Source of the DNA: Novakomyces olei
Lineage: Eukaryota
Reading direction: 5' to 3'
NCBI GenBank assembly: GCA_016906335.1
Contig: JADEYG010000002.1
Span: forward strand, 868,001 to 932,000
DNA: 64,000 bases
This document shows, one piece after another, positions 1,096 through 61,542 of the stretch. The notes beneath the pieces are model-generated. The model did no database searches. It saw nothing but the letters and a program-made list of their open reading frames with translations, and was not told the DNA's origin. Both the position numbers and the translations under genes were made by a program. Position 1 is the stretch's first letter. Each line of letters opens with the position of its first letter.

Positions 1096-1111
1096 AACCC
1101 TAACTAACCCT
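1096..1111. promoter_or_regulatory. Telomere-like promoter element AACCCTAACTAACCCT (exact copy)
   Basis: Exact 16-mer in the divergent promoter of COX23 and the 1323 gene. Confidence 0.75.
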
Positions 1112-1322
1112 AATATTAATTGAAATTTGCTCTGCTATAAGGTGGTCAGGATAACTAACTATATCCCAACAAGAATAACACGAGATACTGAGCAAATCCA
1201 TACTATGGGAATAGAAATAGTGTATATCCGTTGATGCATTACTGTGCTTTCGTTATGAATAATAAAGCATAAACCTTTTGGGCAATAAACTGTGAGGAGC
1301 GTGCAGAGTGCGATTGTGCATA

Positions 1323-1793
1323 ATGTTGCTTCCACGGACGGCACCGTGGCTGCTTTTGACGGTGTTTTTTATGTGTAAGACTTTGTTGGTGAGACCCGCA
1401 GGCTCTTACAATTTTCTTTAGCGACTAGAGCGGCAGCGGACCGGCCTCTGCAAATTTGCAGGTGCATTTGTTTTGGAAATAGTACGCTTTTCCCACTTGT
1501 TGAGCCTCATAATTTGGACTCGCCGTGCCAAGAGTGCACGCGTGATTTCTGCTCTCAGCAAGGCCATCCTTCGCTGCAAGGCTGTGCGAATGAGTCGTTC
1601 GGTGTCGGCTCACCAGACGATTTTGTTACTGAATGCTTTCGTACGTAAATCGTGATTTTAGTATGTCTAATCGGCAGAACGGGAAAGTATAAAGGAAAAC
1701 GTGACAATTCTAGCGTTTTTGGCTGTAGTGGGGTTCTTGTTGGCCTTTGCTACTCTTAAACAGGTGCTCCTGTGGGCACGACCTGTACGTTGA
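1323..1793 (+). CDS. Small Cys-rich single-pass membrane protein with signal peptide, 128 aa, 3 exons (uncharacterised)
   Basis: Exons 1323-1374, 1422-1640, 1678-1793; introns GTAAGA...TAG (47 nt) and GTACGT...CTAAT..CAG (37 nt). The spliced frame is open: MLLPRTAPWLLLTVFFMS...ICRCICFGNST...PCQECTRDFC...GC...ECFQRESIKENVTILAFLAVVGFLLAFATLK... Confidence 0.85.
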
Positions 1794-1931
1794 CGCAATT
1801 CTTATTGCACTACTATCCACAATTAAATCCTAAATGCTCTGCAAACATTAAATGGCCAAGAATTTTAATTCAGCTGCCGTTGTGTAACACTGTTTGTTTG
1901 ATATTTTGGCGCCAATCTCCGGACTAAGATT

Positions 1932-2966
1932 CTATTTAATCCGGTCGTGCTTTTCCGCAAACACCGTGAGCACGGCAAAAACAGAATAAAACAGCATGAC
2001 AGGATACATGACGAGAGCACGAGCTTCAGACATCTTCAAGGCTGCCACAAACATGGAAGATGCAGCTACCGTGCACCACGCAATTGCCACAACAGAGATC
2101 AGATAGCCCCATACATTGCTATATATATGTTAGCGTTCCGGTACACGTTGGCGAAGCAAACAGGCAGAGTGCTGGGACTAGGTGGTTTGAACAGAAGAAA
2201 GGGGAATTTTGGAAGAAAATTCGGCTTGTGCCCGACATACTATGACGGCAGAGAGACATGTTAAACACATTAAATGCAAAATCCAAAAGAATATGACAAA
2301 ACATTACGTACTCCATCTGTAAGAACATTCCAAAAAAAGCGGGAACGCAGAGCGGCAATAGACAGTAGCCTAAAACAGACGCTGTCCGACTAAAGCCCAT
2401 AGTCTCACTGGCCATGAGGGATAGTATAAAATGTAGCGACGCGCAGCCGAACAGGGCAACACCGTAAATATATCCAAAATGTGATTTTCCGGCCTTGAAA
2501 CAGTTAGAGTCAACGGCTACATTGTGCGGCTGTTACCAAAAGCAAAAAAGTGCCCATTGCTAGACAAAACAGGATTGGCCCAGCCAGATCCGAGTCGTCC
2601 ATTATATGACTGTCGACAGACCGTATGGGATTAAGAACGTTCATGGTCTGTTTCCAAGTCAGTATACGCACATCAAAATAGCCCACCGACCTTCTGCCTC
2701 ATATGTGAAAAATTGATTCCGAGTTCTTCGAAAAGTGGAGGGTCATCTGATCCCGTACTGAACGCTTCTAGCCAGCCTGTTTGGCCACTGCCAGAAGCAC
2801 CTTCATAGTATCCACCAGCGGCATTACTGCTACCACTGGGGCCTCCAAAACTTGACGATGAGTAGCCGTAGGGTCCAGGCGTTACACCACCATTTGTGCC
2901 GCCTTGATAGAAATTGAGCGGGTCCGGAGATTGTGGCACGTACCCGCCTTGCCCAAAATGCGACAT
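1932..2966 (-). CDS. YIP1: Yip1 family ER-Golgi membrane protein, multi-exon
   Basis: DDPPLFEELGINFSHM, DDSDLAGP, SVLGYCLLPL; the last exon reads DNVWGYL...MYPVMLFYSVFAVLTVF...IK*. Confidence 0.9.
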
Positions 2967-3102
2967 TGTCTACACCTTTGGTACTCTCTATAGCCAATAA
3001 ATTCCTCACACTATTTATTACGTTTAGATCTCATATCACACCTGTGCGATACTATACTATGTACATGTCGATCGAAACAGCAAATGTTTTTAAGTTGTTT
3101 GT

Positions 3103-3187
3103 CCCAACTAACCCTAACCCTGAACAGTTAACCGACATGCATGATAGGTAGCAAAAGCTAGCTAACCCTAACTAACCCTGACCCTAA
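3103..3187. promoter_or_regulatory. Cluster of telomere-like AACCCT elements (exact 16-mer at 3164-3179; variant at 3103-3121)
   Basis: cccaactaaccctaaccct and taaccctaactaaccctgaccctaa lie in the YIP1/YAF9 divergent promoter. Confidence 0.75.
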
Positions 3188-59807: not shown

Positions 59808-59937
59808 GCTACGCTACGCAACACATTCGGTGAGCGCGCGTCAGGGTTTGAGTCCGCTACAAATGCAATGACAAATTAAAACAATAATATTAAGAACAAT
59901 CACAATAATAACATTACACACAGCACTAATAACAAAG

Positions 59938-60090
59938 CCTTTATTTATTTTTTATCTTATTTTTATTTTTATTTTTATTTTTACTTTTACTTTTATTTCT
60001 AGTTCCAGTTCTAATTTTTTTTTTTTTTTTTTTTTTTTTTTTTTTTCTTTTTATTTCTTATTATTATTATTATTTTTTTATTTTTATATT
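59938..60090. repeat. Asymmetric T-rich tract including a poly(T) run of about 32 nt
   Basis: Poly(T) at about 60015-60046, flanked by TTTTA/TTA repeats, in the NUP85/RIB5 divergent promoter. Confidence 0.85.
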
Positions 60091-60630
60091 CAACAATTTC
60101 TTATTTCCATTGGTACCTCCGTCATACTTGGAACATTATCCACTACCACTTTGCCACAATGGTATTATTTAAATAATTTAGGAAATATAGGTTGGAAATT
60201 GTTCTTATGGTAGAATGATTGAATTAGAAACTCACAAAAGCTTTAGCTAAATCCCCCAAGGATCTGGGAGTTCGCTTGGGCTGTTTATAATTATGTGTTA
60301 CAAATGTCTTTAAACTAAAGTCAAGAACTGACACGCGCGATAGATGTATCTGAATTAGGAGAGTGAAGTATGAATCCCAAGCTACAAGCGCAAAAATAAA
60401 TATGTATAAAGTGTGATATAGTGTGCCTTTTGTGGTATCGCTCACTAATACTAAAAGAAGACACAAGTCACCCAAAAGAGATTGTGAGCTCTAAAGATTA
60501 TAATGACGATGGAAAAGAAGGTGGAATAATTATGAATAATCAACGAACATAGACTATTTTGTTTATTATTCATCTGCCTCTGTCTTAGAATGAGAGCAGG
60601 GCTGAGTAAAGTCTAAAATTTGTGTGAGCC

Positions 60631-61339
60631 ATGTTTACGGGCTTGATTGAGGAAGTTGGTGGTAAGTTTATTATTGTATTTTCAGCTGACGGGGCTAGTC
60701 GTGCAGGCCGTGGAGCCTGATGACCGGAGCGATTCTAAGGGCGAACCAGGATTTTCGCTTTCTGTCGGCCAGTGCCCCACAATCGTTAGCGATCTGCATC
60801 TGGGCGACTCGATTGCGGTGAACGGTGTCTGTCTGACAGCCGTACAATTCAGCAAGGATGCGAGTGCTGTAAAGTTTGGTGTGAGCCCAGAAACTCTCCG
60901 CAGGTCAAATTTGGGCTCGCTTTGTTCTGGTAGTAAAGTAAATCTGGAGCGCGCCCTCCGTGCGGACGCCCGACTGGGAGGCCACATGGTCCAAGGGCAC
61001 GTGGATACAGTGGCAACCATAGATCGCATCGAAGCTGATGGGAATGCGATAGCGTATACTTTTTCCGTGTATGACGGTGCCAGCGAGATACTAAAGTACG
61101 TTGTTGAAAAGGGTTATATTGCACTAGACGGCACATCCCTGACAGTTACAGCTGTGGGAGAGTCACAGTTTTCTATTATGATGGTGGCCTATACACAGGA
61201 CAAGGTTATAATGCCGTCAAAAACAGTGGGCGATACGGTGAACGTGGAAGTGGACCAGGTTGGAAAGTATTGCGAGCGCTTGCTTGCTGGCCACCTTGCT
61301 TCTATCACGGCTGCCCAGGCTATCGGATGCAGGGATTAG
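60631..61339 (+). CDS. RIB5: Riboflavin synthase, 2 exons
   Basis: MFTGLIEEVG, intron 60662-60698, GDSIAVNGVCLT, VNLERA..RLGGHMVQGHVD and KGYIALDGTSLTV. Confidence 0.95.
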
Positions 61340-61526
61340 GTTTCCTGTCCTACAGTATAGCGGAAGATTGGCGGTGGATCAAGGATGCAACTTTTGTGGA
61401 GTCGGACTGCTTCTTTAATGCCCAAACGTCGGTTTGTCAGGCAAAACGTTGTATGGCAAGCAAAATGTTTCAATATGTTTATAACAAGAATGTACTATTT
61501 TCGTTACAGCATAATACCATGTCAAT

Positions 61527-61542
61527 AGGGTTAGTTAGGGTT
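61527..61542. promoter_or_regulatory. Telomere-like promoter element (exact 16-mer, reverse orientation)
   Basis: AGGGTTAGTTAGGGTT upstream of CPS1. Confidence 0.75.

Follow-up and report, generated by a model that had tools for sequence, protein, structure and literature searches.

The window analyzed in this study is a 64,000-nucleotide (nt) stretch of the Novakomyces olei genome (contig JADEYG010000002.1; G000:C2:868001-932000 in the numbering used here), taken from an assembly of 14.34 Mb in 15 contigs. The element under study is a 16-mer resembling telomeric DNA that recurs between the genes of the window. An earlier reading of the same DNA, here called the original prediction, described it as a near-universal, near-invariant promoter element bound by a telomere-type Myb protein. 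Gene models for the window (about 31 genes) came from a small self-trained ab initio gene finder, were checked against Pfam, and were curated by hand. The exact 16-mer occurs eight times, compared with an expected number of 0.00, and none of 100 shuffles yielded any copy; all eight copies originally reported were recovered at the same coordinates and on the same strands. Every one of them is intergenic (four in divergent gaps, four in tandem gaps, and none in convergent gaps), and the nearer predicted start codon lies 108 to 364 bp away, in agreement with the ~110 to 360 bp first estimated. Allowing up to three mismatches added five matches, none of which was a single-mismatch copy.

The four copies in divergent gaps begin with the one at 1096..1111 (plus strand), a span of 1.6 telomere units located between two small predicted genes whose start codons are 212 and 237 bp away. 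Neither of these genes has a Pfam match in the open reading frame (ORF) pieces tested, and an inverted half-site at 1077-1082 accompanies the copy. The copy at 3164..3179 (plus strand) lies between YIP1 and YAF9, 198 and 129 bp from their starts, and that at 30622..30637 (minus strand) lies between TANGO2, whose start is 108 bp away, and an unnamed gene. The fourth, at 51097..51112 (plus strand), separates BCS1 from a proteasome alpha-subunit gene, at distances of 138 and 167 bp, with an extra half-site at 51028. Among the tandem copies, 12272..12287 (plus strand) is 185 bp from the start of a gene for a Clr3/Hda1-type histone deacetylase, named by its domain layout; 41397..41412 (plus strand) is 211 bp upstream of the Timeless/Swi1 gene; and 49252..49267 (plus strand) is 205 bp upstream of TOR, or 55 bp under an alternative first-exon model. 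The last, at 61527..61542 (minus strand), lies 188 bp from the stop codon of the riboflavin synthase gene (RIB5) and 364 bp from the start of an M20 peptidase gene.

The motif was originally placed upstream of most genes. An exact copy is present in the 5' gap of 12 of the 30 window genes that have a 5' gap, and the broader statement holds only when variants and single half-sites are counted (any AACCCT, 23 of 30). The heptamer AACCCTA follows the same distribution, with 16 occurrences in divergent and 9 in tandem gaps (10.7 kb together); the convergent gaps (3.5 kb) contain none, and the genes (49.7 kb) contain 3.

The element is a copy of the native telomere repeat

The best named homologs of the MCM6 protein encoded in the window (65 to 67%) come from Taphrina, Savitreella, Protomyces, Saitoella, Neolecta, Schizosaccharomyces japonicus, and Pneumocystis. 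Because these are Taphrinomycotina, the host is a deep lineage of this early-branching ascomycete group; a closer relative (P0001) shows 81% identity in MCM6. Tandem arrays of the 10-nt unit of the motif are present at 9 of the 15 contig starts and at both right ends fetched, with the C strand at the 5' end. Among 128 telomere units counted at these 11 ends, 82 were AACCCTAACT, 20 carried one A-to-G change, and 13 were the canonical 6-mer. Since the contig ends carry arrays of the same unit, the 16-mer is 1.6 units of the genome's own telomere repeat, which reads (TTAGGGTTAG)n on the G strand, and the description "telomere-like," correct as to likeness, was an understatement. The 10-mer TTAGGGTTAG equals the canonical TTAGGG plus TTAG. 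On the G strand, the second-commonest unit matches the Yarrowia lipolytica repeat GGGTTAGTCA as printed in PMC4839565.

The arrays (L091-L107) are mixed, consisting of the 10-nt unit, its one-base variant, and canonical 6-mers, with the variants mostly toward the inner edge. The starts of contigs C11 and C12 (L101 and L102) carry an irregular A/C-rich short repeat that differs from the telomere repeat. In three rotations tested, the 10-nt repeat was absent from the supplementary repeat table of PMC7857110, and the Neolecta and Protomyces rows shown in that table give TTAGGG. A literature search for TTAGTTAGGG together with telomere, in which few rotations were tried, returned no telomere description of the 10-nt repeat; the top 20 of 371 broader matches were mostly to canonical repeats.

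Two-core architecture and spacing variants

The element consists of two AACCCT cores arranged head to tail, 10 bp apart. Its phase is strongly biased: on contigs C1 and C2, 61 internal loci carry the two-core form, compared with 6 for another 16-nt rotation of the repeat, which holds one core, and 4 of these 6 are extensions of the two-core element. The spacer tolerates change. Both cores at 10 bp with a nontelomeric fourth spacer base are found at 62 sites, compared with 0 for the reversed control. Judged by eye, 21 of these sites share one two-base change, often within three-unit arrays, and 18 have T changed to A at the fourth base; A is kept at the first spacer base in 59 and C at the third in 48. 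For spacers of 5 to 9, there were 155 matches, compared with 44 for the control. Spacer 6 dominates among the 100 of these 155 that were listed, canonical three-unit arrays included, and spacer 5 has only 2 internal matches. In 257 kb of sampled DNA, the other half-site pairs comprised 12 at 6 bp, 7 at 10 bp, and none at 7, 8, 9, or 11 bp, and an extra half-site was found within 150 bp of the element at 20 of 64 loci, compared with 5 for the control.

The exact element is the strongest form in a broader family, to which single half-sites and canonical arrays with a 6-bp period also belong. The near-invariance originally proposed does not survive the spacer variants, the 6-bp-period arrays, and some 1,400 half-sites in excess of the control (see below). 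Its phase, spacer tolerance, and spacing look like the pattern of a protein-binding site. At G000:C7:545388-545550, at least 10 AACCCT cores recur with a 12-bp period and variable spacers.

Telomerase could produce a similar anatomy. Breaks in open promoter DNA might be primed on a half-site and sealed after a single pass of the template, which would yield fixed-phase inserts of 1.6 to 1.9 units wherever breaks are common, with little later selection. The element is exact telomere sequence with a template-like terminal redundancy, and the base following the 16-mer (A at 60 and G at 16 of the 86 loci sampled below) approximates the 82:20 ratio of the main telomere units. A telomerase origin has also been suggested for the telo boxes of plants (PMC3022908), and a local density of breaks or of telomerase could give a regional excess of copies. 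We nevertheless consider it unlikely that the copies are largely neutral footprints of this kind. The changes are located in the spacer and include a recurring nontelomeric two-base variant, often in three-unit arrays, unlike random decay; copies with one mismatch are rare (0 compared with 8 exact copies in the window, and 5 in 257 kb); and the copies in coding sequence and in long terminal repeats (LTRs) require other origins. A weaker point (n = 8) is that no 10-bp element in the window combines the second-commonest telomere unit as spacer with intact cores. Seeding by telomerase could operate together with retention through binding, and the alternatives considered here are not mutually exclusive.

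Genomic context of the exact copies

We assigned genomic context to 86 loci, obtained from the first 30 of each of three listings (90 of 132 matches) after 4 telomeric matches were dropped; the sample includes seven window copies and is weighted to C1-C4 and C7. The loci comprise 28 in divergent gaps, 36 in tandem gaps, 7 in convergent gaps, 1 one-sided case, 3 inside a predicted gene, 8 in LTRs, and 3 in other transposon debris. Convergent gaps hold 7 of the 71 classified sites, compared with 24.6% of the gap length in the window (P = 0.0015), and 26 of the 36 sites in tandem gaps are closer to the start codon than to the stop codon (P = 0.006). For the 64 sites in divergent or tandem gaps, the median distance to the predicted start is 166 bp (quartiles, 108 to 236 bp), with 56 within 400 bp, and the two orientations are represented 34:30, making the enrichment on the 5' side independent of orientation. 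The sites are located in AT-rich intergenic DNA. The promoter-side enrichment described in the original prediction extends beyond the window (64 of 71 classified sites in divergent or tandem gaps). Its exclusions proved to be local. Absence from convergent gaps held in the window (0 of 8) and failed elsewhere (7 of 71), and exclusively upstream or divergent intergenic placement, true of all eight window copies, gave way elsewhere to copies within one coding sequence, within members of an LTR family, and adjacent to 5S genes.

The motif contains CTAAC, and an intron branch point was considered as its identity. This was ruled out by the intergenic position of all eight window copies in the gene models and by the balanced orientation. 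Predicted introns cover 2 of the 86 loci; the ORF and Pfam picture there is one of tandem gaps. Among the seven convergent cases, a transfer RNA or ribosomal DNA (rDNA)/5S gene is present in two, and in two the gene prediction on one flank is weak. No small nucleolar RNA was found near the sites among Rfam matches for 40 of the 86 loci and the window, with Rfam models that may miss this lineage.

Part of the sample belongs to repeats. Solo LTRs of 439 to 528 bp with TG...CA ends account for 8 of the 86 loci and carry 3 to 5 half-sites each, and 5-bp target-site duplications flank three of them. In these solo LTRs (L061, L062, L066, L071, and L087-L090) the half-sites are near one end, and the elements are often nested in retrotransposon debris; four copies at C4:1372-1427 kb may represent a centromere or heterochromatin cluster. 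Two further loci (L073:1-1661 and L076:1-1669) are chromosome-internal rDNA/5S pieces in which the 3' end of the 25S gene faces a convergent 5S gene. Three sites (C5:150462, C5:191337, and C9:732729) share the 21-nt context of the 5S-linked sites and may be further 5S copies. If all copies derived from the LTR family or from 5S/rDNA pieces, similarity should extend into the flanks, an outcome that the original prediction had itself named as a refutation. Such similarity was found at the 8 LTR and 2 rDNA loci, about one copy in eight. The flanks of the remaining loci, including seven of the eight window copies (3164 was not compared), are dissimilar at an E value of 1e-5, with similarity stopping 1 to 3 bases beyond the motif. 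A dispersed repeat was accordingly rejected as the general source, and we regard this origin for all copies as very improbable.

Sites close to gene ends suggest another role, in which a bound Myb protein would mainly act in the short gaps of crowded gene regions, halting read-through transcription, antisense initiation, or replication forks. Copies are found 43 to 100 bp past stop codons in convergent gaps. In both rDNA pieces, the 16-mer lies ~20 bp past the terminator T-run of a 5S gene that faces the 25S 3' end, a position at which one would expect a fork barrier or terminator. In Saccharomyces cerevisiae, Tbf1 insulates divergent genes, with nucleosomes unchanged at one tested promoter (PMC4551913). 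The depletion of convergent gaps, where roadblocks matter most (7 of 71 sites; 0 of 28 AACCCTA occurrences in the window), makes this rather improbable as the main function, although a roadblock role can coexist with the promoter function that we favor below.

Abundance and regional clustering

The genome contains 267 exact matches, compared with 1 for the reversed control. A total of 133 internal exact loci were listed, including 31 on C1 and 30 on C2. The listing is complete for these two contigs and lacks one flank class (7 of 61 loci on C1 plus C2) for the others, which gives an estimate of ~140 internal copies, or about 10 per Mb. The window, at 125 per Mb, is ~12-fold richer. Taking the gene density of the window, roughly 3% of genes would have an exact site. 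With this many copies, a template-like 16-mer is by itself insufficient to identify the telomerase RNA gene. The half-site TAACCCTA occurs 2,040 times in the genome, compared with 408 for the control. By extrapolation from the 105 counted at the 11 telomeric ends fetched, ~190 occurrences belong to telomeres, leaving an excess of some 1,400, and the window is ~2.6-fold enriched (22, compared with 2 for the control). Because ~1,400 excess half-sites stand against ~140 exact internal copies, a broad telobox system is present in which the long exact form is a minority.

The window lies within a hotspot. A block of C2 from 754 to 945 kb (754437-944376) holds 20 of the 30 exact sites on this contig. 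The highest count in 200 kb was 13 among 5,000 permutations across the genome and 15 among 20,000 within the chromosome, and none attained 20. The outermost 200 kb of contigs are also enriched (43 of 129 sites, compared with 23% expected; P = 0.007). These statistics used 131 loci, with two on small contigs excluded. Because the window sits in this hotspot, the claim of a near-universal element fails: ~140 internal copies serve a genome of several thousand genes. The regional clustering is the main fact without an explanation, and it fits no known promoter system.

An rDNA piece comprising the 25S 3' end and a 5S gene marks the beginning of the block, and candidates for the nature of the block include an old chromosome end, a mis-join across rDNA, and a nucleolus- or telomere-associated domain. 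Base composition was rejected as the cause of the hotspot, with a coding G+C fraction of 0.476 (10 loci) compared with 0.496 (54 loci) and similar intergenic values. Among sequencing runs, one independent DNA run contains 0.89 of the words searched for, and no RNA run was listed.

Clustering is best accommodated by a tether that works at the level of domains. Here, two telomere units would recruit a Taz1/Trf2-like telomere protein that sets regional replication timing or nuclear position, and the promoter-side location would reflect origins and open chromatin. In Schizosaccharomyces pombe, late origins inside the chromosomes attract Taz1 through two copies of the telomere repeat (PMC3562287); both systems thus involve two native telomere copies at internal intergenic sites, and a candidate protein with a Taz1-like layout, a single C-terminal telobox Myb, is encoded on contig C9. 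A tether also fits the two-unit length, the use of either orientation, the unrelated genes, the copies near stop codons, the 190-kb C2 block starting from an rDNA piece, and the excess at contig ends. On the other hand, S. pombe has only 16 Taz1-bound internal origins (PMC3562287), compared with the ~140 sites here, and the hotspot, at one site per 8 kb, is denser than origins need. The proximity to start codons (quartiles, 108 to 236 bp) and the depletion of convergent gaps point to gene starts, and the Taz1 assignment is based on only 206 residues. We judge a tether of this kind to be unlikely as the principal explanation.

Candidate binding proteins and proposed function

Two telobox proteins were found. 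A Tbf1 ortholog at G000:C3:1165173-1166582 combines, in one 729-amino-acid frame, a TRF domain (PF08558; E = 7e-61) with a C-terminal telobox Myb that matches PDB 8ynu/6k5u (named trf1 and TBF1; E = 4e-27). A second, divergent telobox Myb at G000:C9:828965-829081 (in L114:1-621, which is C9:828560-829180) forms the C terminus of a 638-amino-acid frame, of which the last 206 residues were examined. Its best PDB matches are Tbf1-type (E = 1e-5), and a homolog search with this Myb returned no homolog. Over these 206 residues, the layout, with a single C-terminal telobox Myb, resembles that of Taz1 or Ustilago Trf2 (PMC7952879), and the protein is a candidate telomere duplex-binding protein of the lineage. 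When the Tbf1 Myb was compared with representatives, 150 single-Myb relatives and no tandem-Myb protein were retrieved.

From the sequence anatomy, the position bias, and these telobox proteins, we infer binding, a class of binder, and an effect on chromatin. With a probability of roughly 0.6, the two-unit telomere copies are high-affinity sites for a telobox (TRF-type) Myb protein that would serve some promoters as a general regulatory factor. Two Myb domains would occupy the two abutting 10-bp units, one helical turn apart on the same face of the helix. The binder may be Tbf1, a Taz1/Trf2-type dimer, or a Teb1/Tay1 tandem-Myb protein that was not located. Once bound, it would keep or bound a nucleosome-depleted region and insulate close neighbors, with a reach of a few percent of genes via the exact site and possibly 15 to 20% via weaker ones. 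The same protein would also serve the sites in LTRs and immediately beyond 5S terminators. Copies may have been seeded by telomerase or by local duplication and would then be retained through selection for binding. The recognition by a telobox Myb that was originally proposed is thus partly upheld: the geometry of two half-sites fits, and a Tbf1 ortholog and a second telobox Myb are present, but no tandem-Myb Teb1/Tay1 protein was located.

Several observations weigh against this reading. The clustering on C2 is not predicted by a promoter role exercised gene by gene, and a telomerase template of similar length with terminal redundancy would also fix the phase. The null for gap length derives from 30 gaps of one window, and the start codons derive from a small self-trained gene finder. 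At least three copies in convergent gaps (L002, L029, and L034) are flanked on either side by Pfam genes, with no Rfam gene present, and lie 53 to 77 bp past a stop codon; 10 of the 36 tandem copies are closer to the stop codon; and one copy (L082) is within a coding sequence of the MIOS family. Reading 8 of the 22 PF00249 matches (6 loci) revealed no tandem-Myb Teb1/Tay1 gene, and a query with the Tbf1 Myb gave no tandem Myb (2 candidates scored, exon by exon). TRFH dimers of the kind found here are not known to require a fixed 10-bp spacing.

Five tandem-Myb candidates were set aside on sequence features. We take C12:1230068 to be Cef1/Cdc5, C7:1858951 to be R2R3-type, and C9:780587 to be Reb1-like; C12:590771 is presumably Bdp1-like, and C15:649060 is presumably Swc4/DMAP1-like.

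Relation to known telobox systems

That telomere Myb proteins work at promoters is well known. The Teb1 HisBox, or AACCCT box, of S. pombe (PMC4839565, PMC12449055) belongs to the same subphylum and shares with the present element two head-to-tail cores and AGGGTT...AGGGTT ends. The Teb1 minimal site AGGGTTAGGGTT ends in the same way but lacks the 4-nt insert (PMC4839565), and pairs with its 6-bp spacing also occur in this genome (window position 5624). In contrast, the long form most often found here carries the 4-nt insert, has its cores 10 bp apart, and is identical to the telomere repeat now in use, whereas the telomeres of S. pombe have departed from TTAGGG. The genes examined here are unrelated rather than histone-centered. 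Because the protein was not found, membership in a Teb1/Tay1 system is unproven.

Tay1 of Yarrowia binds TTNNNNAGGG 10-nt repeats, and the 10-nt TT-NNNN-AGGG form is common to telomeres of the Yarrowia clade and of this genome (PMC6746865). Since Yarrowia belongs to a different subphylum, this likeness is probably convergent. Tay1 has been proposed to bind internal TTAGGG in promoters (PMC12449055). For Tbf1 (S. cerevisiae; trf1 in S. pombe; PMC7952879, PMC4551913), the ortholog described above has the TRF domain and telobox Myb, and TAACCCTA is abundant in promoter gaps. The model-yeast sites differ from the telomere repeat, whereas each telomere unit here contains the full site. The plant telo box, associated with TRB proteins and found in 5' regions of about a tenth of genes (PMC3022908), is likewise a brief stretch of the organism's own telomere repeat in one specific phase, and it raises the same question of telomerase versus selection. 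It spans 1.14 units and marks translation genes (PMC3022908), in contrast to the 1.6 to 1.9 units, mixed genes, and regional clustering seen here. As in S. cerevisiae, where Rap1 and its rpg boxes serve telomeres and many promoters (PMC3022908), one sequence is used for both.

Overall, the feature is real, more specific than first thought, and less general. Rap1 sites, for their part, are degenerate and unrelated to TTAGGG. What is new here is the 10-nt repeat in Taphrinomycotina, promoter boxes that match the derived repeat beside canonical boxes, and the regional concentration; we did not find these aspects in print in a search that most subscription papers fell outside. Yeast telomere repeats are thought to be constrained by the promoter jobs of their binding proteins (PMC12449055, PMC7857110), a constraint that is seldom visible in sequence. 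With ~140 exact two-unit copies beside 6-bp arrays, this genome permits testing of which telobox protein reads which spacing and of whether telomerase can write transcription factor sites.

A broader scenario, which we hold only tentatively and regard as doubtful, is that the telomerase template shifted from TTAGGG to the 10-nt TTAGGGTTAG and that promoter teloboxes were then rewritten region by region, by telomerase or by a retuned binder. The C2 and end blocks would then be domains in which telomere protein coats successive promoters and links gene regulation, the timing of replication, or position in the nucleus with the telomere cluster. If such rewriting is true, telomere-promoter coevolution has been caught midway, with old 6-bp beside new 10-bp boxes.

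Variant sites and remaining genes in the window

The variants that were originally listed all exist and range from near-complete elements to lone half-sites. The gap between YIP1 and YAF9 contains, in addition to its exact copy, one 10-nt unit followed by a canonical half-site pair spaced at 6 bp (3103..3121, plus strand). Three forms share the divergent gap between ASK1 and an SDR gene, all on the plus strand: a variant 16-mer with an altered first half-site (5568..5583), a canonical 6-bp-spaced pair in the layout of the S. pombe Teb1 minimal site (5624..5635; PMC4839565), and a single 10-nt telomere unit (5735..5747). A PNPOx-like gene is preceded by two half-sites at 10-bp spacing, with a two-base change in the spacer (6986..7001, plus strand), and an imperfect 6-bp-spaced pair lies upstream of MCM6 (15061..15074, plus strand). 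The divergent gap between REX4 and TFIIS holds three half-sites at a 10-bp period with nontelomeric spacers (27786..27819, minus strand), and a single half-site (54607..54616, minus strand) lies in the gap from which an unnamed gene and a RhoGAP gene diverge.

Four predicted genes in the window have no Pfam match in the ORF pieces tested (602-859, minus strand; 1323-1793, plus strand; 8714-11442, plus strand; and 28812-30300, minus strand). Two DASH kinetochore genes are present, ASK1 (4218-5304) and DAD3 (53282-53554), and an exact site lies upstream of DAM1 at L016; no pattern was established among them. A further predicted gene is located at 54022-54574 on the minus strand.

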